Shown here: positions 4,457 through 58,517 of the stretch, piece after piece
Position numbering within the stretch: the first letter of the stretch is position 1
Layout: every line of letters begins with the position of its first letter
Origin: an uncultured bacterium
GTDB lineage: Bacteria > Abyssobacteria > SURF-5
Length of the DNA stretch: 64,000 nt
Assembly (NCBI GenBank): GCA_964607485.1
Contig: CAZSKP010000001.1
Location: forward strand, 153,941 to 217,940
Direction of reading: 5' to 3'
Position numbers and translations under genes: made by a program
The notes under the pieces: generated by a model
Told to the model about the DNA's origin: nothing
The model's input: only the letters and a program-made list of their open reading frames with translations
Databases searched by the model: none

Positions 4457-4460
<4 letters not shown>
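2415..4460 (+). CDS. ftsI: Septal class B penicillin-binding protein with C-terminal PASTA domain
   Basis: RGTIYDRN, SxxK (EPGSSFK), SSN, GKTGTAQK; MPDVRGMT PASTA; start uncertain (2415 TTG or 2430 ATG). Confidence 0.95.
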
Positions 4461-5947
<1,487 letters not shown>

Positions 5948-5950
5948 ACG

Positions 5951-21044: not shown

Positions 21045-21397
21045 GGGGGCGAAATGGGTTCGACAGGGATAATCGCTTCCTGGGTCGCATGCCGAGCTCC
21101 CCGACCACTCGTTAAACGGGCGGGAACTAAAATGTAATTGCAGAACCACAGTTCGCAATGGCGGCCTGATAAGGCCACCCAGCCCTCCCGGCAGGCCTGC
21201 GGGCCGGGAACGGCTGTCGACGAGCAGGATAGCGTCGGCGGAATGTCCGAACCTCCGGCGTGAAACCCTTCGGGCTGGCGGTTCGTGAATCCCTCTCACG
21301 GGAGCCACGCGCCGCGAGAACAAAACGTGAGATAAGCATGTAGAAGCCCACGAGGTGGGGTCTCTGGACGGGGGTTCGATTCCCCCCGCCTCCACCA
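21045..21397 (+). ncRNA. ssrA: tmRNA; tag peptide (A)AEPQFAMAA encoded at 21140-21169
   Basis: 5' GGGGGCGAAATGGGTTCGAC; 3' T-arm GGGGTTCGATTCCCC and CCTCCACCA acceptor end; tag ORF GCA...GCG GCC TGA TAA; adjacent to smpB. Confidence 0.97.
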
Positions 21398-40166: not shown

Positions 40167-40239
40167 TTCTCCCTCACCCGGCCCTGTCGTTTTGTTCCGC
40201 AATTCCCTCAAGGGGGAGCAATAACGATGCCATGACCCT

Positions 40240-45778: not shown

Positions 45779-47002
45779 TCATCCCTTCCTTTCCCTGGCG
45801 GCGGAAGGAGCGGTTTCGCCCGCCCTGCCCGTCTCCATCATCGTTCGTATCCCACGCAGCGCCTGCCTTATTCGGTGCTCGTTCTCGACGAGCGCCAACC
45901 TCAGGTACCCTTCCCCGACTGTCCCGAACCCTACGCCGGGCGAGGTCGCGACGAGCGCTTCTTCCAGAAGGAGTTCAGAGAATTTCATCGAACCGAGCGG
46001 CCTGAATTTCTCCGGAATGGGCGCCCAGACGTACATCGTGGCCCTCGGGAGAGGGACGTCCCATCCCATATTGTTCAGGCCGTTCACCAGGACGTCTCGA
46101 CGGCGGCTGTAAATCTGAATCTGTTCGTCAACGTACGATTGATCTCCCTTCAAGGCGGCGATTGCAGCCACCTGGATGGGGGTGAAGATGCCGTAGTCGT
46201 AGTAGCTTTTCAGTTTGGCCAGCGCGGCGATAATGTGTCGGTTCCCGAGCGCGAAGCCGACGCGCCAGCCCGGCATATTGTATGTCTTCGACAGCGAGTA
46301 GAATTCTATTCCGACATCCTTTGCGCCCTTTGCCTGGAGGAAGCTCGGAGCCTTATATCCGTCGAAGCACATCTCGCTGTAAGCCAAATCGTGCACGATC
46401 AGTATCTGCTCCCTCTTCGCAAACTCGACAACCTCCTCGAAGAACGCCAGGTCGACGACCTGCGTCGTAGGGTTGTTGGGATAGCTGAGAATCAAAATTT
46501 TCGGCCGAGGATACACTTGGTGCGTCACCTTCGAGAGGTCGGGCAAAAAGTTGCTCTCGGCGGTGAGGGGCACCGACTGCAGATGCCCACCCGCGATCAC
46601 CACGCTGTAGTAGTGTATCGGGTAACTCGGGTTGGGCACGAGGACCATGTCGCCCTCGTCGAGTATGGCGAGGAAGAGGTGACAGATGCCCTCCTTCGAG
46701 CCGATGACGGCTATCGCTTCGGTCTCGGGGTCGAGTTCGACTCCAAACCGGCTGCCGTACCATTCGGTGATTGCCCTTCTCAGGTGCGGAATGCCGCTGG
46801 AGGCCGAATACCTGTGAGACTTGGGGTCCTGCGCGACCTCGCACAGCTTCTCCACTACGTGTGGCGGCGCGGGTTGGTCGGGATTCCCCATGCCTAGGTC
46901 GATCACGTCCTTGCCCGCCCGACGCGCGTTCAGCTTCATCTGGTTGATGCGCGCGAACATGTAGGGCGGAATCTTTTCCATGTGCTTTGAAAAAAAGCGC
47001 AC
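45779..47002 (-). CDS. alaC: AlaC/YfdZ-like class I aminotransferase
   Basis: PPYMF, DLGMGNPD, YPNNPT, HDLAY, SLSKTYNMPGWRVG, KSYYDYG, ALVENEHRIRQA; family usually adjacent to hom. Confidence 0.75.
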   Translation of the reverse strand: MRFFSKHMEKIPPYMFARINQMKLNARRAGKDVIDLGMGNPDQPAPPHVVEKLCEVAQDPKSHRYSASSGIPHLRRAITEWYGSRFGVELDPETEAIAVIGSKEGICHLFLAILDEGDMVLVPNPSYPIHYYSVVIAGGHLQSVPLTAESNFLPDLSKVTHQVYPRPKILILSYPNNPTTQVVDLAFFEEVVEFAKREQILIVHDLAYSEMCFDGYKAPSFLQAKGAKDVGIEFYSLSKTYNMPGWRVGFALGNRHIIAALAKLKSYYDYGIFTPIQVAAIAALKGDQSYVDEQIQIYSRRRDVLVNGLNNMGWDVPLPRATMYVWAPIPEKFRPLGSMKFSELLLEEALVATSPGVGFGTVGEGYLRLALVENEHRIRQALRGIRTMMETGRAGETAPSAARERKG

Positions 47003-47008
47003 CGGTAT

Positions 47009-47248
47009 CTACTCCTCCTCCAATACTGCGAGCACCTCGCCCACTTTCACCGTCTCTCCCTCGTCGGCCACTATCTCCGCCAGGACGCCCGACCTCGGAG
47101 ACGGCACATTGAAGGTGGCCTTGTCGGTCGTCATCTCCACGAGGTCGTCGCCTTCATTGACCTCGTCGCCTTCCTCGAAATGCCAGAAGGAAACGGAGGC
47201 CTCATCTCCGGCATCCTCGCCTAAGTCGGGTAGTTTCACTTCGTACAT
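47009..47248 (-). CDS. Free-standing E2-type lipoyl-carrier domain
   Basis: EVKLPDLGE, EMTTDKAT (lipoyl-Lys), PSPRSGVL, G.TVKVGEVL; own SD GGAGGA; next to lipA. Confidence 0.88.
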   Translation of the reverse strand: MYEVKLPDLGEDAGDEASVSFWHFEEGDEVNEGDDLVEMTTDKATFNVPSPRSGVLAEIVADEGETVKVGEVLAVLEEE

Positions 47249-47269
47249 TATTCTCCTCCGCCAGAAAGA

Positions 47270-48142
47270 TCAGCGTGATTGTGCCTCTCTTGTCACTTCT
47301 GCCGCATTGTGAGAACTCCGCACGAACGGCCCCGATGCGACCGCCTTGAAACCCATCCGCAAGCCCAGCAGGCGGTAGCGCTCGAACTCGGACGGCTCGA
47401 CAAAGGCGGCCACGGGCAGATGGTCCGGCGACGGACTCAGGTACTGCCCGATTGTGAGAATGTCGCACCTGGCGCCCCGCAAGTCGCTCATGACGGCCTC
47501 GACTTCTTCGCCTCGCTCGCCCAGGCCCACCATCAGTCCCGATTTCGTGAGCATGTCGGGCCGAAACCGCCTTGCGAGTCGGAGCACGGCGAGTGATACG
47601 CGATAGCTCGCCTCGGGCCGCACTCTGGAATAAAGCGACGGAACCGTCTCGACGTTGTGATTGAATACATCGGGCCCGGCGTCCACGACCGTCCGGACCG
47701 ATTGTTCGCGTCCCTTGAAATCGGGGACGAGCACCTCGACCGCCGCCTGCGGATTCAGCCTTCTGAGAGCCTCGATTACCGCGGCGAAATGCGCAGCCCC
47801 TCCGTCTTCCAGGTCGTCTCGCGTGACCGATGTCACCACCACGTGCCGCAGTTTCATCTCGCCCGCGGCCAGAGCCAGTCGTTCCGCCTCCGATTCATCC
47901 AACGGCGCCGGCACGCCTCCCTCGACCGCACAGAACCGGCACGAGCGCGTGCACACGTTGCCCATTATCATGAACGTGGCCGTTCCGCTCGCGAAACATT
48001 CGCCCGTGTTGGGACAGTGCGCGCTGCGACACACGGTGTTGAGGCGGTATTTTTCCAGCACGCCCCGTGTGAAATCGGCCCGCGGGCTCGCGGGCAGCCT
48101 CTTCTTTATCCAGGGCGGAAATTTGCTTTTTACCTGCGGCAT
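47270..48142 (-). CDS. lipA: Lipoyl synthase
   Basis: [12 protein letters not shown] and [31 protein letters not shown]. Confidence 0.97.
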
Positions 48143-48175
48143 CCGGATCTTCCGTATTGGCTATCAGTTCATTGC

Positions 48176-48204
48176 TGTAAGGGCGCACGGCCGCACGCCC
48201 CTGC
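48176..48204. repeat. Degenerate GTAG-type REP-like palindrome
   Basis: GTAAGGGCGCACGGCCGCACGCCCCTGC resembles the REPs at 57388 and 57681. Confidence 0.4.
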
Positions 48205-48245
48205 GAGAATAAGTCAATGTCCAAAAACAAGTTCAATAGCGCCTT

Positions 48246-48274
48246 AGTCTAGCACAGCAAAAATGCAAATGCAA
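48246..48274 (-). promoter_or_regulatory. Sigma70-type promoter of lipA run
   Basis: Minus strand TTGCAT-N17-TAGACT with extended -10 TG. Confidence 0.55.
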
Positions 48275-48500
48275 CCATCTTGCCGGGCGCGCGCTATCTC
48301 ACCATACAGAGCGCATAGCGTCTTTAACCATCTTCGTTCTTGACAAAATATAGCACTTTGCGGATTTTCCTGTCAACGGCGGAATGATTGGAAGTCTAAC
48401 AATATTTTCGCGCTTCCCGGTGGCCACTTGAAAAGTTCTGAAAGGGAATGGTAGAGTAGTAATCGCTCCGTAAGGGAAGCAAGAGAGGACGCCAAATGCG

Positions 48501-49535
48501 ATGAGCATCCGGTTCGAAAAATATTCTCGCATAACGAAGTTTCTCGACCCTGCCCAGAACTTCGAGGAAAACGAGCGGCCGACCGAGATACGTGTTGACC
48601 CACTCACCGGTCGAACCGCGCGCGTGCTGCATTTCCCCATACGCATGCTGTCGAGGCCGGACCTGACGGAAATCGTTGAGCGCTCGCTGGAGTTCGGCTG
48701 CCCGTTTTGCCCGCAGATGAGAGAGATGGTCACGCCCAAGTTTCCGGCGGAGCTGACGAAGAAAGAGCGAATCCGGCAGGGCGACGCCGTCGTGTTTCCC
48801 AACATGTTTCCCTACGACACGTTCAGCGCGGTGGCAATATTCTCCGACGAGCACTTTAAGCCCCTGGCCGAGTTTGCGCCGGAACTGCTGCGCGACGGCT
48901 TCCGTGCGTCGCAGGAGTATCTGGCCTCCGTGAAGAAGGCCAATCCGGACGCCTCCCGATATTGCACCATAAACTGGAATTATATGCCGCTCGCCGGCGG
49001 AACGATCATACATCCGCATCTTCAGATAATCGCCGGAGAGGGCGGGACGAATTATCATCGCTCGATTCTGGATGCGAGCAGGAATTATGCGGCCGAAAAT
49101 TCCGGGTGCTATTGGGCCGACCTCATCGAGGAGGAGTCGAGGCGGGGCGAGAGGTTCATCGGCAAACTTGGGAAGGTGACCTGGCTGACCAGCTTCGCGC
49201 CCAAGGGGTTCATCGACATAACGGCGGTGTTCGAGCGAACGCCGGCCATCGCGGACATCGACGTTTCCGATTGGACGGATTTCTCGCGAGGGCTCTCGGC
49301 GGCGATGAAATACCTGGACAGCCAGGGCCTCTACAGCTTCAATATGGCCATGTATTCAGGTTTGGGAGAGGACCATTTCTGGACGCACGCCAAGCTGATT
49401 CCCAGAGCGCTCCTTCCGCCGATGAACACGAGCGACATCAATTATTTCAACACGCTTCACGACGAGGTTCTGACGATTTTCGAGCCGGAGCAGACCTGCG
49501 CCGAAGCAAGGGCATTTTTTGCCGAGATGGCGTGA
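48501..49535 (+). CDS. GalT-like nucleotidyltransferase (HIT superfamily)
   Basis: RVDPLTG, CPFCP, FPN.FPY, NWNY...GGTIIHPHLQ (HxHxQ). Confidence 0.85.
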   Translation: MSIRFEKYSRITKFLDPAQNFEENERPTEIRVDPLTGRTARVLHFPIRMLSRPDLTEIVERSLEFGCPFCPQMREMVTPKFPAELTKKERIRQGDAVVFPNMFPYDTFSAVAIFSDEHFKPLAEFAPELLRDGFRASQEYLASVKKANPDASRYCTINWNYMPLAGGTIIHPHLQIIAGEGGTNYHRSILDASRNYAAENSGCYWADLIEEESRRGERFIGKLGKVTWLTSFAPKGFIDITAVFERTPAIADIDVSDWTDFSRGLSAAMKYLDSQGLYSFNMAMYSGLGEDHFWTHAKLIPRALLPPMNTSDINYFNTLHDEVLTIFEPEQTCAEARAFFAEMA

Positions 49536-49605
49536 ACGGCTGTCGGACTGGGAGAGGAAATTCTCGGCGGAGAGTCACGAGCTTCCGAAAGGAGATAACT
49601 TCATC

Positions 49606-50052
49606 ATGCCCCGTCGCAAGACCACACCGGAATTTAGAAAATGCCAATGCGGACAATCATGGAAGACTCGGGACGATTTTCTTCACGACGGGAAAGTGAA
49701 GATAGTGGGCTATCAGCCCGATTTCGTGACGGCCAAGTACAACCACTTTTTGTTTCAGCATCGCGCGAAAAACTGCGGCCGGTTCTTCGGCGTGAGGGCG
49801 TCCGACTTCGGCGACCTTCGCGAGAAGGAGTGTCCCAATGAACTCTGCACGGGGCAAGAGGGGTGTCCGGGGTACTGCCTGAACACGTTCGACCTACGGA
49901 TCTGCTCGGTGACGTGCCGCAACGCAACCGATCGGATGCTAGCCTCGAAGCTCCGGAGCCGCCGCATACTGAGGGGCTTGAAGTCGGCGGCGGCAGGTGC
50001 CCGCCATCGTGGCAAGGGCAAAGCCAGGTCAGCGGCGGCGCGTGCTAAATAG
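49606..50052 (+). CDS. Small cysteine-rich hypothetical protein
   Basis: ATG 49606 after AAGGAG; nine Cys (CQC, NCG, CPNELC, CPGYC, CSVTC); basic C-tail. Confidence 0.7.
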   Translation: MPRRKTTPEFRKCQCGQSWKTRDDFLHDGKVKIVGYQPDFVTAKYNHFLFQHRAKNCGRFFGVRASDFGDLREKECPNELCTGQEGCPGYCLNTFDLRICSVTCRNATDRMLASKLRSRRILRGLKSAAAGARHRGKGKARSAAARAK

Positions 50053-50133
50053 CGAATTTCATTAACTTTTCGGTAGTAACGCCAGCCTTCCTGAACGTTC
50101 GGTATGCATTCCCGGCCAAATTTATCCTCTTCC

Positions 50134-50598
50134 TCAACTGACCAGCCTGCCGTGAGATATGGCCCCAATAACGTCTGTGGCGGTCACGATGCCGACCACC
50201 TTACCGTCCCTTAAGATGGGCACCCGGTGGACGCGATGCTCATGCATGGTCCTGCATATCTCATTCACCGGAGTCGACTCGGCGGCGGTATAGAGGCGGG
50301 TGGACATGATCTCCTCGACCCAGAGGTGTTTGAAGGATACTCCCTCGGCCTCCTCCGTGTTGAGGGCGGAGGAGAAGAGCTCGTAGATTTCCTGATATTC
50401 GAGGTTAGCGCCGAGAGTGCGTACCTCCTCCCTGATCAGGTCGCGCATTGAGACCATTCCGACCATTTTTTCTTCCCCGTCTATCACGGGAACGCCGGTA
50501 ATCCTCTTATCGGCAAGCAGCTTCAAGAGGTCGCGGATGGACGCCGAGACGTCTATCGTGACGACTTCGCGCGTCATGATGTCTTTCGCCAGGAGCAT
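50134..50598 (-). CDS. CBS-pair (Bateman domain) protein
   Basis: AKDIMT, ITGVPVID...VGMVS.RDL, VEEIMS, VHRVPIL..GKVVGIVT..DV. Confidence 0.92.
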   Translation of the reverse strand: MLLAKDIMTREVVTIDVSASIRDLLKLLADKRITGVPVIDGEEKMVGMVSMRDLIREEVRTLGANLEYQEIYELFSSALNTEEAEGVSFKHLWVEEIMSTRLYTAAESTPVNEICRTMHEHRVHRVPILRDGKVVGIVTATDVIGAISHGRLVS

Positions 50599-50606
50599 TT
50601 CGAACC

Positions 50607-51860
50607 TCAGCTTCCAAATCGGTAAGTGGCGCCCATCAGGTCGAGTATCGAGAGCAGAAAATCATTGGCCCTGATGCGGCAGAGCCCGCCACGCGCGCAC
50701 GCTCGTTCTCCGAAGCTTGTCACGCCATCCACGAGAACTCCCTCGCCGTGTATCAGCACGGGCACGGGGTCGGCGCTGTGTTCACGGATTGCCGACGGGG
50801 TGGAATGGTCGGCCGTGATCGCGATGTAGGTGTCCTGCGGGTCGTCGAGGCCGTCGATTATCTTTTGAAGCATGTTATCGGTGCGTTCGATGAACGCGAA
50901 CTTTTCGCGTGGTTTGTTGTCGTGGGCCATGAGGTCCATTCCCTTGATGTGGGTGGCGACGAAATCGGCCTCCTTCAGGCCCTGGAGTGTCAGCCGTGCC
51001 TTCTCGTCCAGGTCCGTATCGACGTTGGCCGTGAGCTTTTCGTTGGTCAGCACGGTGAAGCCCGCCATCTGGGCAATTCCGGCGACGGTGCTCTCTCCGG
51101 TGACACAACATCCTTTGATGTTGAACCTCTCGGCGAGGCTCCGCATCTTGACGGCCATGCCGGCCCCCCGGGTGATGACTATGTTGGCGGGAAGCAGGCC
51201 CTTTTCCACGCGCTCTTTGTTCAGGTCATGGTCTTTGAGTATGTGGTACGACTTGCGCACGAATTCGTTGACAAGGCGGGCGGTTTTCTCGGCCAGGGGT
51301 TGACCGGGCCGTTTCGATTTCACTTCTTGCACCGGTTCACCTTCGTTTGCCGGTCCAGGGTCGGAGTTGGTTATCTCCGCCGAGAGCCGTCCTCCGCCGA
51401 GCACGAGGACGGCGCGGTGTTCGGTGGCGCGCTTGAATACGGCGTTCATCCCATCGCCCAGCGGCATTCCATCCAAAGCTGCCGCGAGCGGCTCCGTGTG
51501 TCTGATTCGGCCGGCGCGGCGGTTCAGCACAATGAAATTTTCATCGACGGTCGCGAAGTTGCATCGAAGCGCGACGTCTCCCGGCTTGAGATGGATCCCG
51601 ATGCCTGCGGCTTCGATGGGGCCCCGTCCCCAGTACACCTTCAGCGGATTGTAGCCGAACAGCGCGAGGTGTCCCACGTCGGTGCCGACCCGGATTCCGG
51701 GCGAGAGCGGGTCCATCAGGCCGGTGATTCCGCCCCGTGCCAGCGCGTCGAAGCAGGGCGTGTGGGCGGCCTCAAGCGGTGTCATTCCGCCGAACACGTC
51801 GAGCGGGCGGTCGCCCAGACCGTCGAGTATCAGCATGACGGCTTTGCGGATTTTCTTCAT
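50607..51860 (-). CDS. apgM: 2,3-bisphosphoglycerate-independent phosphoglycerate mutase, archaeal ApgM type
   Basis: ILDGLGDRP, TPLEAA.TP, GTDVGHLALFGY, GRGPIEAAG, HIKGMD..AHD, TADHSTP, HSADPVP. Confidence 0.92.
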   Translation of the reverse strand: MKKIRKAVMLILDGLGDRPLDVFGGMTPLEAAHTPCFDALARGGITGLMDPLSPGIRVGTDVGHLALFGYNPLKVYWGRGPIEAAGIGIHLKPGDVALRCNFATVDENFIVLNRRAGRIRHTEPLAAALDGMPLGDGMNAVFKRATEHRAVLVLGGGRLSAEITNSDPGPANEGEPVQEVKSKRPGQPLAEKTARLVNEFVRKSYHILKDHDLNKERVEKGLLPANIVITRGAGMAVKMRSLAERFNIKGCCVTGESTVAGIAQMAGFTVLTNEKLTANVDTDLDEKARLTLQGLKEADFVATHIKGMDLMAHDNKPREKFAFIERTDNMLQKIIDGLDDPQDTYIAITADHSTPSAIREHSADPVPVLIHGEGVLVDGVTSFGERACARGGLCRIRANDFLLSILDLMGATYRFGS

Positions 51861-53230
51861 GGCGTTTTCCCTGTCTTAAAACGTTCAACAGCAAGTTCTG
51901 CCAGCCGAACGACTTCCTCGGCCAGTTTCGGTTCTCCGTCGATTTCGAGCGGGATGTTGTCGGCGTACACGACCCTCAGGTTCGCCTCGAGGCCGAGCGC
52001 GGTGGCCACGTCGATAGCCGCCGCCTTCACCTCGGTCAGCAACACTGTAGGCCTGCGGCTCTTGATGGCCTCTGCGATATCGGCCCGCAGCTTCGGCCGG
52101 TTCGACAGGTGATGGCTGACGGCCACGACCTCGCAGCCGAATTCCCGCTCCAGGCTGTTCCGAATAATTTCGCCTGCGATTTTGGGTGCCGTTGTCGCCA
52201 GGAGCACCCTCTCGTTCTTGATGTCCCCGAGCGGCTTCGGTCTGAATACGGTCTTGACCACTCTTGCCGACGGGTTCAGCGCGCGTATGCAGTCGAACAT
52301 AGCCGATATCTTCTTCGGGTCGGCCATCGGCTCCTCGCACATCGTGAGCACGCAGAGGTCGGTCTTGCGGATGCGGTAGGGGCCCATGTAATCCGTAATG
52401 TATTCGAGCGGCTGATGCGCTCCGACGGCCATCGCCCAGCCGTCGGTCGCGACGGGCGGCATCGACGCGCCGCTCCCCTCGAATATCACGAAGTCGGCAG
52501 GGAGCGTGTTGGCGACGCGGGCTCCCTCGGGAACGACCGAGGTGAACACGACGCCCGCAAATCCGCCCCCGCAGCGGCGGCAGCCTATGGTCGTCAGCCG
52601 CGTCATGAGCGCGTCCTCGTAATGGTCGCTGGCGGCGTGCTTGCCCTTGCGGCTCTCCGCCAGCAGGTGCTCGGGCGTGATGTGGATCTCCTCGCCGTGG
52701 ATAACCTCCGGCTGGGGCGGTCCGCCGCGTCCCATCGTGACGATGCAGGGTTTGTAGTCGGCCTCGATTGCTTCCTGTCCGCTCAGAACGCGGGCGATGT
52801 AGGCCGCCAGCGCCGTCTTGCCTACGCGCTTGCCGGTGCCGCCGACGGAGAGCGAGGGCTTCGCGCAAATCTTTTCGTATCGGGGAGGAGTGAACCGAAA
52901 GTCGGCCCCTTCGTAGGATACGTCGTGGCCGAGTATCAGGTTGGCGAACTCGAACCGCCTTCGGTAGCTGACCACGGGCTCGTCGCTCAGGTCCACGACC
53001 ACGTCGGGCCGAAACCGGTCGATCGCGCCTGAGATCGCCGCAAGCGGGTTTTCATCGATGACCACCGGCAGGCCGAGCTCTTTCAGGTCTTCGGGCGAGC
53101 CTATCTTCTCCATCCCGCCTATGAATACGGCCGCGGCGGCTTCATACGAGCGGCTTTGCGAAACTTCGGAGATACCGTCCCGATTGACTGGAATGTAGTG
53201 TTCTCCGTCTATCAGGAAGAGAGCTTTCAT
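51857..53230 (-). CDS. cpgS: Cyclic 2,3-diphosphoglycerate synthetase
   Basis: LIDGEHY, FIGG.EK, DLSDEPVV.Y..RF, GADF.F.P, GTGKRVGKTA, MGRGGP, HAASDH.EDALM, GCRRCGGG, EGSGA..PP, TMCEEPMA, FRPKP, LSNRP, TE.KAAA.DVAT, DN.P; colinear with Methanothermus-type cDPGS as I recall it. Confidence 0.9.
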   Translation of the reverse strand: MKALFLIDGEHYIPVNRDGISEVSQSRSYEAAAAVFIGGMEKIGSPEDLKELGLPVVIDENPLAAISGAIDRFRPDVVVDLSDEPVVSYRRRFEFANLILGHDVSYEGADFRFTPPRYEKICAKPSLSVGGTGKRVGKTALAAYIARVLSGQEAIEADYKPCIVTMGRGGPPQPEVIHGEEIHITPEHLLAESRKGKHAASDHYEDALMTRLTTIGCRRCGGGFAGVVFTSVVPEGARVANTLPADFVIFEGSGASMPPVATDGWAMAVGAHQPLEYITDYMGPYRIRKTDLCVLTMCEEPMADPKKISAMFDCIRALNPSARVVKTVFRPKPLGDIKNERVLLATTAPKIAGEIIRNSLEREFGCEVVAVSHHLSNRPKLRADIAEAIKSRRPTVLLTEVKAAAIDVATALGLEANLRVVYADNIPLEIDGEPKLAEEVVRLAELAVERFKTGKTP

Positions 53231-54408
53231 CTGGCTTTCCTGAGGGGGGGCTTGTCGTGGCTCCTGACGAAGGCGGTGAGGTGTTGTACGATGGTGGCCA
53301 CCGTCTGGTCGAAGTTCTTGCTTTCAAAAACGGGCACGTTGTGTTTGTGGGCCTGCTCCACGACGAAATCCTGTATCTTCCGTATCGAGTCGAAGTTGTC
53401 GAGATATTTCTCCGCGCCTCGGGTGGAAGCCTGCTGGCCCCGAAGGTGGAAGCGTTCGCGGTGAATGTTTTCGTCCTCGGTGGTTATCACCATCCTGAAC
53501 ACGAGCGCCTTATCGCCATAGTCCCTCTTCAGGAACCCCGGCACAAGGTGCACGCCGTCTATTATTGTGCTTATCTTCTCGTTCAGCGCGCGGTCCATCA
53601 GCGCGTATATGCCCGCCGAGACGCGCAGAGCCTGTTCCATGAACGCTGCAATGACTATGTCGTCCTGGACGCCCTTGGGCAAGTCGAACGATTTCCAGGC
53701 GTCGAACGACGACCTGTGGATGGTCGGCATCAGCTCCGGCGAGAACATGATGCGCATGACCTCCCTGACCGAATCCGTCGAGATGACGCGCGTTATGCCA
53801 AGGCGATGCGCAAGCTCGACCGCTATCGTGGACTTGCCCGTACCGGCGGTCCCGCCCAGCAGGATGATGAGCGGGGTGGCGGGGTTCTTGAGGCGCCGCC
53901 AGAGCAGATAACGATTTGCGTACGAGGAGCCGTACTTTTTTCGGAGCGTATTGACGGTCAGGTCGCGAAGCTCGTCGCGGCTGACCTCTCGGCCGCGGCG
54001 GCGCAGGAGCGCTTTCTCAATTGTCACCGCCAGTGAATGAGATATATTCGGCTCGATGCCGGAGGCCTCAAGCGACTGCGAGAGTATCCCCTTTGAGAAG
54101 GGCACGCCCGACTTGTCTCCCATCACGAGAATGGGAGAGGAGACCTTCTTCCAATCGAGGTATTTATTGGCCATATCCTGGTCGTGCTCGCTGCGCAGGA
54201 GGTCAGAGACGATTCGTCTGAGCTGGCTCTTGTCGACGCGCGCCGATTTCCTCTTCATCAGGCGCTCCTCGACCTTCTCGGCCAGCCGGTAAGCCTCGTC
54301 GGGTTCCAGGCCGATGGCGAGCAGTCCTTGCGACAATATTCCCTTGGAAAACGGGAACTGAGTGTCTTTGCTCACCACCAGAGGGTATTTGTTTCTTTGT
54401 GTTTTCAT
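53227..54408 (-). CDS. 2-phosphoglycerate kinase with two N-terminal ATP-cone-like domains
   Basis: PFSKGILSQ twice; YLLWR; LLGGTAGTGKST.A.ELAHRLGI..VISTDSVREVMR; IDGVHLVPG; HRERF; YLDNF..IRKIQ. Confidence 0.88.
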   Translation of the reverse strand: MKTQRNKYPLVVSKDTQFPFSKGILSQGLLAIGLEPDEAYRLAEKVEERLMKRKSARVDKSQLRRIVSDLLRSEHDQDMANKYLDWKKVSSPILVMGDKSGVPFSKGILSQSLEASGIEPNISHSLAVTIEKALLRRRGREVSRDELRDLTVNTLRKKYGSSYANRYLLWRRLKNPATPLIILLGGTAGTGKSTIAVELAHRLGITRVISTDSVREVMRIMFSPELMPTIHRSSFDAWKSFDLPKGVQDDIVIAAFMEQALRVSAGIYALMDRALNEKISTIIDGVHLVPGFLKRDYGDKALVFRMVITTEDENIHRERFHLRGQQASTRGAEKYLDNFDSIRKIQDFVVEQAHKHNVPVFESKNFDQTVATIVQHLTAFVRSHDKPPLRKAR

Positions 54409-54445
54409 ACGCTGAAACGGTTTGGAAATCCCCGCGTCTCAGTCA

Positions 54446-54475
54446 AGTCTAGCATAGGCTCGACCGACGTGTCAA
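54446..54475 (-). promoter_or_regulatory. Sigma70-type promoter of cDPG operon
   Basis: Minus strand TTGACA-N18-TAGACT with extended -10 TG. Confidence 0.6.
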
Positions 54476-54544
54476 AGCACGGGATTAGAGGTTTGGGAGA
54501 GTTTGTCGGCGCACGTTTCAAAGAACGAAAAAAGGGCTTAAGCC

Positions 54545-54573
54545 TTGACAAAGCATCTTTGGTTTGTTATGTT
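54545..54573 (+). promoter_or_regulatory. Sigma70-type promoter of sdh operon
   Basis: TTGACA-N17-TATGTT with extended -10 TG. Confidence 0.55.
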
Positions 54574-54647
54574 TTTTATCGACCTCAGTCGAATCTCTCA
54601 GGTGTTGAAGCTCTCATTTTTTCGGTATCGAAGGAAAAGAGCTTTCC

Positions 54648-54986
54648 ATGACTCAGCACCGCGGGCTCTTGCCCTGGCTGCTCCAACGGATAACGGGCGC
54701 CTACCTCGTCTTCGGCATGGCCGTCCACATCATCGTGCTTCCACTCGGCAAGGGAACCATAACGTTCGAAAGCGTCTCCGCGCGCCTTCAACATCCATGG
54801 TGGGCGACGTTCGACTTTCTCCTCCTTGCCGTGTGCGTGTACCACGGCTTCAACGGGCTGTGGTCGGTCTTCCTTGATTTCAACCCTTCGCCGGGGCTGC
54901 GCAGGGGTGTCGGCTGGGGGCTTGCATTGTTCGGGCTGATCTGGGTTGTGTTCGGCATCTTCGTGTTGGTTCCTTTCGCGAAATAG
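54648..54986 (+). CDS. sdhD: Succinate dehydrogenase hydrophobic anchor (SdhD-like)
   Basis: WLLQRITG, three TM helices, YHGFNG...D. Confidence 0.75.
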   Translation: MTQHRGLLPWLLQRITGAYLVFGMAVHIIVLPLGKGTITFESVSARLQHPWWATFDFLLLAVCVYHGFNGLWSVFLDFNPSPGLRRGVGWGLALFGLIWVVFGIFVLVPFAK

Positions 54987-54995
54987 GGGGCAGGC

Positions 54996-55364
54996 GTGAG
55001 CTGGCTCAAGGACTTTCTGCTGAACAGACACGAGGGACAGCCGTCGTTCGGGCTTCAGCGGATTACGGGCATCCTGCTTGCCGTCTATCTTATCCCCCAT
55101 GTCTTCCTGAACGGATACGCGCTGATGTTCGGGGCGGAGAAATACGACACGGCGACCGAGATGGCGCAGAAGCTTCACTGGCTGGAGCTGCTTATAATCC
55201 TCGGAGTCGCCTTCCACATGTTCAACGGCATCCGCATCATAGCGGTTGATTTCTTTTCGGCCACGCGCAGCCGCAAGCGCCTGTTCTGGATCGCGAGCGG
55301 GCTCACGGCGGTTGTGATGATCTACAGCATCTACGTGTACATCCCGAAGATGTTCGGACACTGA
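54996..55364 (+). CDS. sdhC: Succinate dehydrogenase cytochrome b subunit (SdhC-like)
   Basis: QRITG..L..YL.PH, FHMFNGIRII..D, three TM helices. Confidence 0.75.
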   Translation: MSWLKDFLLNRHEGQPSFGLQRITGILLAVYLIPHVFLNGYALMFGAEKYDTATEMAQKLHWLELLIILGVAFHMFNGIRIIAVDFFSATRSRKRLFWIASGLTAVVMIYSIYVYIPKMFGH

Positions 55365-55382
55365 GTGCGAACTGAGGCACGG

Positions 55383-57110
55383 ATGAAATACCATAACGTC
55401 ATAATAGTCGGCGGAGGTCTGGCCGGGCTGAGGGCGGCGCTTGAGGTCAACATGAACAACCTGCGCGCCGCAGTGCTGTCGAAAGTCTATCCCATCCGCT
55501 CTCATTCAATCGCGGCGCAGGGCGGCATCAACGCTCCGCTGGGCAATCACCCGCGAGGGGGCCACGACACGTGGGAGCGACACGCTTTCGATACCGTCAA
55601 AGGCAGCGACTACCTTGCCGACCAGGACGCCGTCGTGCGGATGGTACAGGACTCCTCGACGCGCATCATCGAGATGGAGCACTGGGGCTGCCCCTTCAGC
55701 CGGACTCCCGACGGAAAGATTGCGCAGCGTCCCTTCGGAGGAGCGGGCTTTCCGCGTACCTGTTTTGCGGCCGACAAGACCGGCCACATGCTGCTGCACA
55801 CGCTCTTCGAGCAGGCGGTCAAGTACGAGCAGGCGGCCGAGCGGGGTGAGTTGAAGATATACAACGAATGGCTCGCGACCGCGCTCGTCGTCGAGGACGG
55901 CGTGTGCCGGGGCGTGATAGCGCTCGAATTGGCGACCGGTCAGCTCGAGGCGTTCAAGGCCGACGCGGTCGTGTTCGCCACGGGCGGGGCGGGCAGGCTT
56001 TACTCCAACTCCACAAACGCGCTCATCAACACCGGCATGGGCATGGCCTTACCGTATTGGGCGGGCATTCCGCTCAAGGATATGGAATTTATCCAGTTCC
56101 ACCCCACGACGCTCTTCGGCTCGAACATTCTCATGACCGAGGGTGCGCGGGGAGAGGGCGGATACCTTACGAACAACAAGGGGGAACGCTTCCTCGCCAA
56201 TTATCCCGACAGTAGCAAGCTGATGGAGGTGGCTCCCCGCGACATCGTGGCGCGAAACATGACGACCGAAATGCTCGAAGGACGCGGGTTCGAGAACGCG
56301 TACCTGCATCTGGACCTCAGGCACCTGGGAGAAGAGAAGATCGCAACCCGCCTCCCCGGCATACGCGACATAGCAAGGAAATTCCTCGGCGTCGATCCCG
56401 TCGACGAACCTGTGCCGGTTCAGCCGGGGCAGCACTACACGATGGGCGGAATCGACTGCAACAAAGATGGGGCCTCGAGGGTGAAGGGCTTCTACGCGGC
56501 CGGCGAGGCATCGTGCGTGAGCGTGCACGGCGCAAACCGGCTGGGCGGCAATTCGCTGCTTGAGACGATCGTGTTCGGAAAGATCGCCGGAGACCACGCC
56601 TCCGAGTACGTGTCGGGAAAATCCGATGCGGGCGCCGGCGACAAAGCGCTCGAAGAAGCCCTTGCGCGGGAAGAAGAGAAACTTAAGAAACTGCTCGGTT
56701 CCGGCGGCTCGGAAGACCCGTCCGTCATCAAGGAAGAAATGCAAGCTACTATGCGTGACAAGGTCGGGATATTCCGCACCAGGGAGAGCTTGGCGCAAGC
56801 GGCGGAAAAGCTTAGGGAACTGCGGGAGCGCTACAACAAGATACGGCTGAAGCACACTGGCCGCACGTACAACTACGATCTCATGTGGAATATCGAGCTA
56901 CAAGGGAGCCTCGACGTCGCGGAGGCGGTTGTCGCCGGAGCGCTCGCGCGCGAGGAGAGCCGGGGCTCCCAATTCCGCCGCGATTTCCCTAAGCGCGACG
57001 ACGACAAGTTCCTCAAACACACGCTCGCGTATTGCACGCCCGACGGACCGAGACTGGAGTACAGCGACGTCACCCTCGGCTACTGGGAACCGCAGGAGAG
57101 GAAATATTAG
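55383..57110 (+). CDS. sdhA: Succinate dehydrogenase/fumarate reductase flavoprotein
   Basis: GGGLAG, RSHSIAAQGG (covalent FAD His), QFHPT, TEGARGEGG, HYTMGG, HGANRLGGNSL, REESRG. Confidence 0.95.
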   Translation: MKYHNVIIVGGGLAGLRAALEVNMNNLRAAVLSKVYPIRSHSIAAQGGINAPLGNHPRGGHDTWERHAFDTVKGSDYLADQDAVVRMVQDSSTRIIEMEHWGCPFSRTPDGKIAQRPFGGAGFPRTCFAADKTGHMLLHTLFEQAVKYEQAAERGELKIYNEWLATALVVEDGVCRGVIALELATGQLEAFKADAVVFATGGAGRLYSNSTNALINTGMGMALPYWAGIPLKDMEFIQFHPTTLFGSNILMTEGARGEGGYLTNNKGERFLANYPDSSKLMEVAPRDIVARNMTTEMLEGRGFENAYLHLDLRHLGEEKIATRLPGIRDIARKFLGVDPVDEPVPVQPGQHYTMGGIDCNKDGASRVKGFYAAGEASCVSVHGANRLGGNSLLETIVFGKIAGDHASEYVSGKSDAGAGDKALEEALAREEEKLKKLLGSGGSEDPSVIKEEMQATMRDKVGIFRTRESLAQAAEKLRELRERYNKIRLKHTGRTYNYDLMWNIELQGSLDVAEAVVAGALAREESRGSQFRRDFPKRDDDKFLKHTLAYCTPDGPRLEYSDVTLGYWEPQERKY

Positions 57111-57387
57111 AGGTTATCCCAATGGGAACAAGAACCCACGACCGACGATCGCTCCGGTTGCGGCATCACGATTATGCTCGTCCCGGCGCCTATCTTGTGA
57201 CGATCTGTGCACGAGATCGGCGCTGCGTGTTTGGGGAAGTAATGGATGGAGCCATACGGTTGAATGTCTCAGGGCGGATTGTTGCGGACAGTTGGGAGTG
57301 GTTGTCGCGACAATACCCTTATGTAATCACGGACATTTCAGTCATCATGCCAAACCATTTGCATGGAATCATCATGATCACCGAAGA

Positions 57388-57419
57388 TTGTAGGGGCGGT
57401 TCGCGAACCGCCCCTACAA
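57388..57419. repeat. Perfect 32-bp REP-like palindrome inside the RAYT coding sequence
   Basis: TTGTAGGGGCGGTTCG|CGAACCGCCCCTACAA is its own reverse complement. Confidence 0.9.
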
Positions 57420-57680
57420 GGAAACAAAAACCGCTGGGACGGCTAATCGGGGCATTTAAGACCATATCAACCAAACACATCAATCAAATCCGCAACACAC
57501 CTGGCACCCGCATTTGGCAACGCAATTATTATGAACATGTGATTCGAAACGAAGAAGAACTTGACAAGATCAGAGAATACATTCTCGGTGATCCAGCCCA
57601 ATGGGCCTTCGACCGGGAAAACCTGCTGGCTGAGAAGAGGCAAAGCGAACAAGAAAATGAAATAGACAATATACTGGGAA

Positions 57681-57705
57681 GGGCGCAGCATGCTCCGCCC
57701 CTACA
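57681..57705 (-). repeat. GTAG-type REP at the RAYT 3' end
   Basis: Minus strand TGTAG-GGGCGGAGCATGCTGCGCCC. Confidence 0.75.
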
Positions 57706-57800
57706 GATGTAAGACCTGGAGCCGTGACGATGCCGTAAATGTCTCTTTTCTTCTTAGCGACGGACAACCAAAAAAACAATTACTCAAGGAAGAGGAAAGC

Positions 57801-58517
57801 GTGGCTGATCTAACGTTCAAGGTGTTCAGATTCGACCCCGCCGCCGACGGCGCGCCCCGGTTCGATACGTGTCGGGTGCCGCGTTTCAAGAAGGGGTTGA
57901 CCGTGCTGGAGGGGCTCTTCTATATCCAGGAAAAACTGGACGGCTCACTTGCGTTCAGGGCGTCATGCCGCGAGGGCGTGTGCGGCTCGTGCGCGATGCA
58001 CATCAACGGTAAATACCGGCTCGCCTGCGAGACGCAGGTGGCCGACCTGGGCTCGGACACGGTCACAGTGCAACCGCTTGGCCATCTCCGGGTGCTGCGC
58101 GACCTCGTCGTCGATATGGAGCCGTTTTTTGCGAAGTACAAGTATATTAAACCGTTCCTCATGCCCGGCAGCCCGCCGCCTGAGCGTGAACGGCCGCAAA
58201 CCGTCGGCGAGCATGCGAAGGTGATGCCGTCGATAGACTGCATCCTGTGCGCGTGCTGTCATGCTTCGTGCACCGTCACGGGCACCGACCCCGAATACCT
58301 CGGCCCGGCCGCGCTCCTGTGGGCCGACCGATTCGCGCGCGACTCACGCGACAACGCCGTGGACGAACGGCTCAGGCTGGTTGACCAACTGCACGGCGTC
58401 TGGCGCTGCCACACCATCTTCTCCTGCCAGGAAGTCTGCCCCAAGGACCTCGACCCCACCGGCGCCATCGCCGACCTCAAGCGCCTGGCGATCAAGCATA
58501 AGCTGTTTGGTGGCTGA
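57801..58517 (+). CDS. sdhB: Succinate dehydrogenase iron-sulfur subunit
   Basis: SCREGVCGSC...LAC, CILCACCHASC, CHTIFSCQEVCPK; GTG 57801 after GAGGA. Confidence 0.95.
   Translation: MADLTFKVFRFDPAADGAPRFDTCRVPRFKKGLTVLEGLFYIQEKLDGSLAFRASCREGVCGSCAMHINGKYRLACETQVADLGSDTVTVQPLGHLRVLRDLVVDMEPFFAKYKYIKPFLMPGSPPPERERPQTVGEHAKVMPSIDCILCACCHASCTVTGTDPEYLGPAALLWADRFARDSRDNAVDERLRLVDQLHGVWRCHTIFSCQEVCPKDLDPTGAIADLKRLAIKHKLFGG

Follow-up and report, generated by a model that had tools for sequence, protein, structure and literature searches.

What are the genes for cyclic 2,3-diphosphoglycerate (cDPG) synthesis doing in the chromosome of a diderm-type sediment bacterium? De Rose 2023 states that cDPG is exclusive to hyperthermophilic methanogens, and cDPG synthetase (cDPGS) has served evolutionary reconstruction as an indicator of a thermophilic ancestor (Abby et al. 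2020). We explored this question in a 64,000-nt stretch of DNA (hereafter, the window) from a bacterium of the phylum Abyssobacteria, together with the rest of its genome, the genomes of its relatives and metagenomic loci. The reading that we favor, with a probability of roughly 0.8, is that a chromosomal, vertically inherited four-gene operon of this Abyssobacteria family diverts 3-phosphoglycerate (3PG) into cDPG.

Layout and conservation of the operon

Inspection of the minus strand confirmed a unit at 54408-50134 of four co-oriented genes, each with an ATG start, for a 2-phosphoglycerate kinase (2PGK; 53227-54408, 393 aa), cDPGS (51857-53230, 457 aa), an ApgM-type cofactor-independent phosphoglycerate mutase (50607-51860, 417 aa) and a stand-alone CBS-pair (Bateman) protein (50134-50598, 154 aa). 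The tight coupling described in the first-pass annotation was read directly in the letters: ATGA overlaps join kinase to synthetase (53230-53227) and synthetase to mutase (51860-51857), and a gap of 8 bp (50606-50599) separates the mutase stop from the CBS start. A 306-aa minus-strand ORF at 54585-55505, considered as a fifth gene, was discarded as the shadow of the plus-strand genes sdhC (54648-54986) and sdhD (54996-55364). An Rfam search found no regulatory RNA near the operon. No RNA dataset was among the eight sequencing runs listed for the region.

The promoter proposed for the unit was recovered by a promoter scan as a sigma-70-type promoter-like site on the minus strand at 54475-54446 (TTGACA, N18, TAGACT, with TG before the -10 hexamer; 10/12 positions matching), 38 nt upstream of the kinase ATG and inside the 239-bp divergent spacer common to the kinase gene and sdhC. 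Such a site is not significant by itself, with four sites in 6 kb vs 1.5 ± 1.3 in shuffles; the motif TTTGACAC...CCTGTGCTAnACT upstream of the kinase gene is kept in 7/8 aligned family loci, that is, in 6/7 distinct genomes, since L006 and L013 come from one genome, and its surroundings have diverged.

The operon occupies about 204-208 kb of contig C1, which continues for at least 9 kb past it; a dcw cluster and lpxK in the same window bear out the diderm host proposed at first reading. cDPGS is present in 9/9 other genomes of the Abyssobacteria family, which is known from groundwater, mine fluid and sediment samples, and in 0/1 of the sister family. The order 2PGK-cDPGS-ApgM-CBS holds, as far as the contigs reach, in all eight family genomes with fetched loci, complete on one contig in five of them, between conserved neighbors (sdhCDAB at one end and a DUF4931-like gene at the other); the synteny survey found the same order in an Omnitrophota MAG. 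The GC content of the four genes is 0.572-0.628 (genome, 0.574), codon usage is typical of the genome (percentiles 26, 15 and 49 for the three long genes) and all four genes show dN/dS values of 0.04-0.17 in comparisons with three relatives, in the range of purifying selection. Family-wide presence, shared flanks, host-like codon usage and low dN/dS together indicate that the operon is old, vertically inherited and not a chimera, so that the claim of long residence rather than recent transfer was upheld.

Identity of the four proteins

The kinase scored 394.7 bits against NF003259 (PRK04220; equivalog cut-off 343) over residues 93-382, which substantiates the 2-phosphoglycerate kinase identity suggested earlier. 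It has two tandem N-terminal ATP-cones followed by a P-loop kinase domain (Pfam: two ATP-cone stretches and AAA_18), whereas the methanogen kinase has one ATP-cone. Its residues 1-92 align to 93-180 with a score of 168 vs 24.9 ± 4.5 in shuffles, which marks the extra N-terminal ATP-cone as a duplication. No solved structure of any relative of the kinase was found. Both the kinase and the synthetase genes are single-copy in the genome. The kinase is predicted to convert 2-phosphoglycerate (2PG) and ATP into 2,3-DPG and ADP.

The synthetase, comprising the N-terminal domain and the P-loop core, is full length: residues 2-454 of 457 align to residues 5-458 of 459 of the Methanothermus fervidus enzyme (8ORU/8ORK; E 1.4e-137, 462 bits, phmmer), and it is 48% identical to a copy from a Methanothermobacter MAG. 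PF27272 is precomputed for the protein; the local Pfam and NCBIfam sets contain no cDPGS-family model, and their blank result for the synthetase and 12 relatives is thus uninformative. We then mapped the contact residues listed in section 8 of De Rose 2023. In the Walker A motif GTGKRVGKT, K134, R135, K138 and T139 correspond to M. fervidus K145, R146, K149 and T150; D202 corresponds to the Mg ligand D208; E41 and K42 correspond to E45 and K46, which contact 2,3-DPG from the partner subunit; and E299, T347, E400 and K402 correspond to the ADP contacts E305, T353, E404 and K406. All 11 contacts to ligand, Mg and ADP from that section that could be mapped without ambiguity are therefore identical in the two proteins. 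The P335 given in the same section maps to no proline under chain numbering, and the FRPKP stretch around this position is identical in both. The contact residues are kept in all 44 aligned named-locus homologues, bar one frameshifted row that lacks the C-terminal positions. The enzyme would convert 2,3-DPG and ATP into cDPG, ADP and Pi, with this second ATP closing the intramolecular pyrophosphate ring.

The third protein is an ApgM mutase, as the first-pass annotation had it, scoring 427.7 bits against TIGR00306 (subfamily cut-off 320) and matching PDB 2ZKT over its full length (E 1.6e-93, residues 5-416 to 5-411); its best-scoring model is NF003104, with 484.6 bits, 4.4 below the strict equivalog cut-off of 489. 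Of the three ApgM-family paralogues in the genome, the one in the operon most resembles canonical ApgM. It shares 57% identity with the ApgM encoded in the Omnitrophota operon, but 36% and 34% with the other two paralogues of its own genome, one of which (C40) scores best as PhpG-like and is kept in all nine other family genomes (80-88% identity across relatives), and the other of which (C27) is of the ThrB-like type and adjoins aspartate kinase. Neither GpmI nor GpmA was found above cut-off in the genome. The sister-family genome has none of the three ApgM paralogues and no cDPGS either, which makes this comparison uninformative on whether ApgM is dedicated. In the operon, ApgM would interconvert 3PG and 2PG and thereby feed the kinase.

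The last gene encodes two CBS domains, as claimed, which account for the whole 154-aa protein (PF00571, 111.7 bits in two stretches). Its counterparts follow ApgM in the family loci (63-71% identity), and further homologues are found in the Omnitrophota operon (37%), after ApgM in the related genome G067 (39%) and before GpmI in the operon of another bacterial phylum, here called the G024 type (35%). The CBS protein is a putative nucleotide-sensing regulatory partner of the module.

Relatives in archaea and bacteria

In the cDPG pathway of Methanothermus fervidus and Methanothermobacter (8ORK, 8ORU), both enzymes have clear counterparts here, and the same chemistry is expected. Unlike the methanogens, the host is a diderm-type sediment bacterium, and cDPG would probably not serve heat protection in it. 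The arrangement differs as well: in the 18 fetched Methanobacteriales-type loci cDPGS has no adjacent kinase, whereas here the two genes overlap within an operon that also contains the mutase and the CBS protein.

In a careful tree of 36 rows (M. fervidus itself is not among them), a core clade (100/100) united Methanothermobacter and Methanobrevibacter rows with an Abyssobacteria clade (100/99), and all 21 core bacterial rows formed one clade apart from Methanobacteriales. The G024-type synthetases were set off from this core by a branch of 2.2 + 2.2 substitutions per site. When the tree was rooted on the G024 type, an outgroup that is itself bacterial and on a very long branch, the archaea were basal and the core bacteria formed one clade (92/95); in an unrooted quick tree the archaea formed one clade (SH-aLRT 90). 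The full-length M. fervidus match and the grouping with Methanothermobacter confirmed a true cDPGS rather than a member of a divergent look-alike family. The label "archaeal-type" held in part: the core enzymes do match the methanogen cDPG enzymes, but their nearest relatives are other bacteria, in a clade of their own. Nor are bacterial homologues scattered, as had been supposed; they are abundant, and NCBI and JGI already list them under the name cDPG synthetase. That bacterial homologues are many and automatically annotated limits the weight of the finding.

Bacterial operons related to this one fall into several layouts. The Actinomycetota-type operons, known from database annotation, tightly link counterparts of the two core enzymes (41-54% identical to the window proteins, with the same ligand residues) in an order reversed from that seen here, with cDPGS before the kinase, and their third partner is a calcineurin-like phosphoesterase, so that they read metallophosphoesterase, cDPGS, 2PGK (L017, L020, L044, L049); related layouts were seen in 14/80 metagenome loci. 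These operons have no mutase, and the ApgM-like gene nearby is ThrB-like, 55% identical to the C27 copy of the window's genome. Their phosphoesterase gave no match in that genome (one query), and no candidate cDPG hydrolase was found there.

The G024-type module, present in 8/26 genomes of its phylum, combines the same four functions in one operon with a different gene order: 2PGK (39% identical to that of the window), CBS, GpmI and a divergent cDPGS, which is 28-31% identical to the window's, exceeds it by about 50 residues and carries Q at the E305 position. Its GpmI (339.5 bits against TIGR01307; cut-off 330.65) lies directly upstream of the synthetase in 6/6 loci of this type and is a non-orthologous mutase that would fill the role of ApgM in this module. 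The Omnitrophota locus (L015) repeats the window operon in both gene content and gene order. In G067, an orthologous ApgM-CBS pair (65% and 39% identity) is on a different contig from 2PGK-cDPGS.

The recurrence of a phosphoglycerate mutase and a CBS protein in bacterial cDPG modules, with ApgM in an Omnitrophota MAG and GpmI in a third phylum, is the new element of this analysis, and on comparative grounds it supports a unit leading from 3PG to cDPG, in which flux would run from 3PG to 2PG by ApgM, to 2,3-DPG by the kinase and to cDPG by cDPGS. The tandem ATP-cones of the kinase and the CBS-pair protein, which always adjoins the mutase, probably gate this flux by energy state. We also considered ApgM as a breakdown enzyme, given that in other operon types a phosphoesterase takes its place by the CBS gene, and rejected this as the main reading: in the G024 type the same place is held by a true, non-orthologous mutase, GpmI, and the window protein aligns with solved mutases from end to end.

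Alternative readings and physiological role

That archaeal DNA was binned or assembled with a bacterial genome is hardly credible. The assembly does consist of 93 contigs, with an estimated contamination of 2.57%, and in the run that best covers the region the Logan contigs are interrupted at 52510/52511, within the synthetase gene. However, in run X1 a pair of abutting contigs connects the operon with the flank on either side, in run X4 one contig (52455-52675) spans this break without any difference, and the operon is interior to C1, between bacterial sdhCDAB and other conserved genes, with the dcw cluster and lpxK in the window. Family genomes that were assembled independently have the operon between the same flanks, and its codon usage here is genome-typical; as far as these data go, the chimera check proposed at first reading came out in favor of an intact bacterial locus. 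It is improbable, too, that the core enzymes have drifted in function, so that the pathway ends at 2,3-DPG, or the synthetase uses another substrate, and no cDPG is made. Such drift has a precedent in the same P-loop superfamily: as described in PMC11032458, the arginine synthetase ArcE (TK2200, Thermococcus kodakarensis), a distant member with low cDPGS similarity that was formerly annotated as a putative GTPase or as cDPGS-like, is widespread in bacteria, has arcB and arcC as linked genes, and converts arginine to citrulline and back. Moreover, in the literature searched the cDPGS enzymes were archaeal, apart from one heterologous production host, and neither a bacterial assay nor a bacterial cDPG measurement was found, in agreement with the earlier statement that no demonstration of native accumulation in bacteria is known. 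Against drift stand the full-length match to M. fervidus with every mapped 2,3-DPG, Mg and ADP contact identical, the grouping with Methanothermobacter and Methanobrevibacter cDPGS far from the G024-type clade, the translational coupling to the kinase that would make the substrate, and the lack of arcB- or arcC-type genes among the neighbors. As to ArcE itself, the synthetase is set apart from its published description by its neighbors (kinase, mutase and CBS protein), by its high cDPGS similarity and by the retained 2,3-DPG-binding residues; no ornithine transcarbamylase (OTC) or carbamate kinase family was found among the window ORFs scanned.

A more serious possibility, although we still consider it unlikely, is that the operon makes cDPG while ApgM is the everyday mutase of glycolysis or gluconeogenesis, has a CBS regulator of its own and merely lies downstream of the two cDPG genes. 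The genome yields no GpmI or GpmA above cut-off, and the copy closest to canonical ApgM is the one in the operon; the separation of the ApgM-CBS pair from the cDPG genes in G067 means that the mutase may be the general glycolytic mutase of the lineage; and neither ApgM nor CBS follows cDPGS in 4/4 sister-group metagenome loci with at least 4.5 kb of downstream flank. On the other hand, the ATGA overlap couples translation of ApgM to that of cDPGS, the genes stay linked throughout the family and also in an unrelated Omnitrophota MAG, another phylum has independently set GpmI directly upstream of cDPGS in all six of its loci, and the C40-type gene, conserved in 9/9 other family genomes, could be the housekeeping enzyme. 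Feeder and housekeeping roles are not mutually exclusive. The "dedicated" ApgM of the first-pass annotation stands as no more than plausible, given the three paralogues, of which the operon copy is the most like canonical ApgM, and the one related genome in which the pair lies apart.

Under the favored reading, a self-contained route from 3PG to cDPG, an intact and selected cDPG operon with a built-in mutase and CBS sensor runs through a whole bacterial family of groundwater, mine fluid and sediment, and the same four functions form one operon in two other phyla. This suggests that cDPG has a wider and different physiological role than the one known from methanogens, for example in phosphate, carbon or energy storage or as an anionic solute. 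In the present host, cDPG would accumulate most likely as a phosphate, carbon and energy reserve and anionic solute rather than for heat protection. An IVYWREL fraction of 0.415 would correspond to growth at about 54 °C; this estimate, from a crude formula applied to crude ORFs, is uncalibrated and was not relied on, and a thermal role is therefore less likely but conceivable. Recognizable polyphosphate kinases are missing from the lineage: among the 11 genomes of the phylum, PPK1 was found in none and PPK2 in one, where the single match is a contig-end fragment. The sister-family genome lacks PPK1, PPK2 and cDPGS alike, so a lack of these kinases and possession of cDPGS do not go neatly together. 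Enolase is present in the genome.

Reversal of the cDPGS reaction has been reported for the M. fervidus enzyme. One may speculate from this, in a proposal that we hold to be rather doubtful, that cDPG is a widespread bacterial phosphagen-like reserve and not an archaeal heat-protection speciality. The four-gene module would then act in Abyssobacteria, which lack polyphosphate kinases, as an energy-charge-gated shunt: the ATP-cones and the CBS protein would open the way from 3PG to cDPG when ATP is plentiful, and reversal of cDPGS would return ATP and phosphate during starvation in the energy-poor subsurface. If this were true, cDPGS would no longer be usable as a marker of thermophily. The compact four-gene cassettes also offer themselves for making cDPG, a commercially interesting extremolyte, from 3-phosphoglycerate.

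Organization of the operon and identity of its products

The four genes lie on the minus strand in the order 2-phosphoglycerate kinase (2PGK, 54408-53227, 393 aa), cyclic 2,3-diphosphoglycerate (cDPG) synthetase (cDPGS, 53230-51857, 457 aa), ApgM mutase (51860-50607, 417 aa) and CBS protein (50598-50134, 154 aa), each beginning with ATG. Direct reading of the sequence placed ATGA stop/start overlaps at 53230-53227 (kinase/synthetase) and 51860-51857 (synthetase/mutase), with an 8-bp spacer between the mutase and CBS genes, and a promoter scan returned TTGACA-N18-TAGACT, with TG upstream, at 54475-54446 (minus strand). The arrangement described by the first-pass annotation, namely four co-oriented and coupled genes with two overlaps, a short gap and a promoter-like site, was thus found intact. 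The scan gave four matches of this kind over 6 kb, and shuffled sequence 1.5 ± 1.3, so the promoter-like match taken alone is little proof. The TTTGACAC...CCTGTGCTAnACT motif was kept 5' of the kinase gene in seven of eight aligned family loci (six of seven distinct genomes, locus L011 being the exception), and the bases adjoining it had diverged. No terminator-like site was predicted 3' of the CBS gene, and an Rfam search near the operon returned no RNA element. A 306-aa ORF upstream on the operon strand merely shadows sdhC and sdhD and was rejected as a fifth gene, which leaves 239 bp between the operon and the divergently oriented sdhCDAB (54648-58517).

The kinase matched the curated 2-phosphoglycerate kinase model NF003259 over residues 93-382 (394.7 bits, cut-off 343) and carries two ATP-cone stretches (Pfam), its residues 1-92 duplicating 93-180 (alignment score 168 vs 24.9 ± 4.5 for shuffles). 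The CBS protein consists of two CBS domains and nothing more (Pfam). As families, ATP-cones and CBS pairs are nucleotide-binding regulatory modules.

The synthetase had no match in local copies of Pfam and NCBIfam, because these hold no model for the family; PF27272 is assigned to it in a large protein collection. It aligned with the Methanothermus fervidus cDPGS structures 8ORU/8ORK almost end to end (E 1.4e-137; residues 2-454 of 457 to 5-458 of 459), and also with 9SXB, a second structure entry of the same name (5e-107). Contacts with 2,3-DPG, Mg and ADP reported for the M. fervidus enzyme include E45, K46, K145, R146, K149, T150, D208, E305, T353, E404 and K406, E45 and K46 being contributed by the partner subunit (De Rose et al. 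2023). In the structure-match alignment their window counterparts (E41, K42, K134, R135, K138, T139, D202, E299, T347, E400 and K402) were all identical. The P335 cited in the same paper maps to a residue other than proline when chain numbering is used, but both proteins have the same FRPKP sequence at this site. The first-pass annotation had considered that the synthetase might cluster with a shorter cDPGS-like GTPase family, whose present name is ArcE, arginine synthetase (PMC11032458). The window protein is unlike ArcE as described in that paper, given its high similarity to cDPGS and its retained 2,3-DPG contacts; it is also translationally paired with a kinase and has no arcB or arcC neighbours.

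The mutase scored 427.7 bits against TIGR00306 apgM (cut-off 320) and 484.6 bits against the strict equivalog NF003104 (cut-off 489), and aligned along its whole length with 2ZKT, a mutase of Pyrococcus horikoshii (E 1.6e-93). Three ApgM-family genes are present in the window's genome, all of them kept in the nine other genomes of the family, and of the three it is the operon copy that best resembles canonical ApgM; neither GpmI nor GpmA was found above cut-off in this genome. With 57% identity to an Omnitrophota operon copy and 36% and 34% to its own genome's paralogues, the operon ApgM is a distinct subtype. One of these paralogues, a ThrB-like gene adjoining an aspartate kinase (G000:C27:47707-48907, loci L061/L062), is broken in this assembly by a frameshift or sequencing error, its two frames overlapping (model positions 1-289 and 278-401).

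Age and authenticity of the region

The window, 153941-217940 of contig C1, belongs to a genome of 4.70 Mb in 93 contigs, estimated as 97.5% complete with 2.6% contamination. It contains a dcw cluster (PBP, MurE, MurF, MraY, FtsW, MurG, MurC, MurB, FtsQ, FtsA and FtsZ) together with lpxK, dprA and tmRNA, which marks the host as a diderm-type bacterium. The tmRNA gene lies at 21045-21397 on the plus strand (171.4 bits, Rfam), and the minus-strand ORFs over it were discarded as spurious. The nearest named relatives of the synthetase come from 'Candidatus Abyssobacteria bacterium SURF_17' (81%) and from a groundwater MAG labelled Poribacteria (77%), close clusters bearing the NCBI names Abyssubacteria and Hydrogenedentota.

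We weighed whether the region could be an assembly chimera or a recent import. Among the 11 species genomes of the phylum in the collection, cDPGS was found in all nine other members of the window's family and was not found in the single sister family genome (96% complete). The order 2PGK-cDPGS-ApgM-CBS was kept, as far as the contigs extend, in all eight of these nine genomes whose loci were retrieved, and was complete on a single contig in five of them; in one genome, G009, the operon is divided between two contigs and its synthetase gene is interrupted by a frameshift or TGA. Flanks are common to the family: sdhB-sdhA borders the operon at one end, and a 177-aa ORF with a DUF4931-like gene at the other. 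In the best-holding run, Logan contigs covering 46000-52510 and 52511-57417 joined the operon to both flanks, and a contig from another run spanned the break (52455-52675) without difference. None of the eight sequencing runs listed for the region was an RNA run. Codon usage was typical of the genome (ranked by distance to it among 1046 ORFs of comparable length, the three long genes stood at percentiles 26, 15 and 49), and Nei-Gojobori dN/dS against three relatives was 0.04-0.17 for all four genes, at dS values of 1.1-2.8, near saturation. Family-wide presence, common flanks, bridging contigs, codon usage and dN/dS together mark the operon as a long-standing part of this lineage, inherited vertically and under selection; it is neither chimera nor recent import, and the long residence proposed by the first-pass annotation is borne out.

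A 196-aa ORF (57122-57712, plus strand) is wedged between sdhA (ending at 57110) and sdhB (starting at 57690), and has a weak match to an IS200-like Y1 transposase, its 20.2 bits (E 6.8e-4) falling short of the cut-off, 23. It encloses a perfect 28-bp palindrome, GTAGGGGCGGTTCGCGAACCGCCCCTAC (57390-57417), occurring once in the window, at which contigs of four runs pile to depths of 40-135 and then break into many different sequences. ORF and palindrome together resemble a REP/RAYT-type mobile repeat that would have inserted in the sdh operon.

Distribution of cDPGS and recruitment of the mutase

Relatives of the synthetase are numerous: at least 7997 of the 8000 matches listed had E <= 1e-10, their named hosts including Planctomycetota, Cloacimonetes, Coatesbacteria, Actinomycetota, Clostridia and Firmicutes, and a library of 1.84 billion representatives (50% identity) held 878 proteins at E <= 1e-3 and 193 at <= 1e-30. 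A careful IQ-TREE phylogeny was built from 36 rows, leaving out locus L050 (frameshifted), loci L047 and L054 (fragmented) and 13 near-duplicates (L019, L026-L028, L030, L031, L034-L037, L040, L049 and L051). The eight Abyssobacteria rows formed one clade (100/99), with L021, from an uncultured bacterium, as sister (99/94). One clade (92/95), separate from Methanobacteriales, took in all 21 core bacterial rows together with a single Thermoplasmata row. Rooting on the divergent type of G024, a member of another bacterial phylum, made the archaea basal, but that outgroup is itself bacterial and its branch is 2.2 + 2.2 substitutions per site long. In an earlier quick tree, which took in distant representatives without labels, the 11 archaeal rows had gathered in one clade (SH-aLRT 90). 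The window's gene is clearly no recent acquisition from a methanogen. Its product falls within a clade holding Methanothermobacter and Methanobrevibacter, genera with cDPG-accumulating species (Roberts 2005).

Gene order around cDPGS varied among lineages. In contrast to the window, Methanobacteriales-type loci had no kinase adjacent to cDPGS (18/18), and Actinomycetota MAGs showed the order phosphoesterase-cDPGS-kinase (L017, L020, L044 and L049), their nearby 'ApgM' being of the ThrB-like type, 55% identical to the C27 copy of the window's genome. Across 80 metagenome loci, many on short contigs and scored by same-strand tblastn matches within 3.5 kb, cDPGS stood alone in 44, followed by kinase in 10, by kinase and one or two phosphoesterase genes in 9, and by kinase, CBS gene and phosphoesterase gene(s) in 4; one was phosphoesterase-cDPGS-kinase and 12 were kinase-cDPGS. 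ApgM followed cDPGS in only three of these 12 kinase-first loci, all Abyssobacteria-like (71-81% identity), and neither ApgM nor CBS followed it in any of the four sister-group loci whose downstream flank reached 4.5 kb or more. Metallophosphoesterase gene(s) come after cDPGS-kinase in 13 of the 80 loci (L105, L107, L110, L111, L113, L114, L117, L129, L132, L135, L136, L138 and L140), with a CBS gene in between in four of the 13.

Outside the family, the full four-gene order was seen once, in the Omnitrophota MAG locus L015, whose kinase, cDPGS, ApgM and CBS products share 40%, 53%, 57% and 37% identity with those of the window. Next after the CBS gene of L015 comes one with an HD_5 phosphohydrolase domain (4484-5350, plus strand), possibly encoding a breakdown enzyme in that lineage. 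In the genome of L021, G067, an orthologous ApgM (65%) and, directly after it, a CBS gene (39%) lie on a contig apart from the kinase-cDPGS pair (L155, G067:C66, 450-1703 and 1752-2183), so that ApgM-CBS forms an independent unit. A third phylum of small genomes, the G024 type, differs in having kinase-CBS-GpmI-divergent cDPGS (L148, G024:C16:14880-26320; ORFs 2009-2905, 2924-3352, 3356-5002 and 4992-6515). Its 2PGK-like protein falls under the cut-off (292.8 bits, 343 needed), its CBS protein and that of the window share 35% identity, and its 507-aa synthetase is 28-31% identical, with Q in place of E305. This synthetase occurs in 8/26 genomes of that phylum, with GpmI directly 5' of it in 6/6 loci (further loci L149-L154).

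In the operon types compared, the CBS protein always adjoins ApgM, GpmI or a phosphoesterase, a constant placement with a phospho-transfer metalloenzyme. Judged from these gene orders, a mutase has been recruited to the cDPG module at least twice, from non-orthologous families, and this repeated recruitment is the best available support for the mutase feeding 2PG into the pathway. The ApgM feeder proposed by the first-pass annotation thereby gains support, though an exclusive role does not follow in a genome with three ApgM-family genes and no GpmI or GpmA above cut-off.

Predicted pathway and possible role of cDPG

In the proposed pathway, ApgM would convert 3PG to 2PG, the kinase would phosphorylate 2PG to 2,3-DPG using ATP, and the synthetase would close 2,3-DPG to cDPG with conversion of ATP to ADP and Pi, the last step following the mechanism that De Rose et al. 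(2023) put forward on the basis of their M. fervidus structures. The M. fervidus genes have been expressed in Thermus thermophilus (De Rose 2021, cited in De Rose et al. 2023). At high concentration cDPG is a thermoprotectant in hyperthermophiles, and in Methanothermobacter it is a carbon and phosphate store with rapid turnover; the M. fervidus synthetase is reported as reversible and could regenerate ATP (Roberts 2005). For the Abyssobacteria lineage we favour a role in storage or as an anionic solute, because members come from groundwater and sediment (record titles) and from 22 C mine fluid (Momper 2018, Table 1), and because polyphosphate kinases are nearly absent: PPK1 was found in 0/11 genomes of the phylum, and PPK2 in one, the most contaminated of them, where the match is a fragment at a contig end. 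Two caveats attach to the storage reading, namely that the sister family is without both PPKs and also without cDPGS, and that a crude composition-based temperature estimate, from an uncalibrated formula, gave ~54 C. No breakdown enzyme was evident in the window's genome, and one query with the Actinomycetota-type phosphoesterase had no match there.

cDPG is described as exclusive to hyperthermophilic methanogens by De Rose (2023) and likewise in a 2025 synthesis paper, and cDPGS has been read as a marker of thermophily when ancestors were reconstructed (Abby et al. 2020). In literature on cDPG, cDPG synthetase and 2-phosphoglycerate kinase, mostly at abstract level, we found no native bacterial pathway, and the term 'diphosphoglycerate' does not occur in the Abyssubacteria description. 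Public records already label the bacterial homologues cDPG synthetase, and the present operon is one of many; bacterial cDPG genes are nonetheless surprising against that literature, and directly testable. Notable here are the presence of the trait throughout a family of diderm bacteria and the inclusion of a mutase and a CBS sensor in the operon.

Elsewhere in the window, an 833-aa ORF (37710-40211, minus strand) fuses an acyltransferase domain to a complete NAD-dependent glycerol-3-phosphate dehydrogenase (GpsA).
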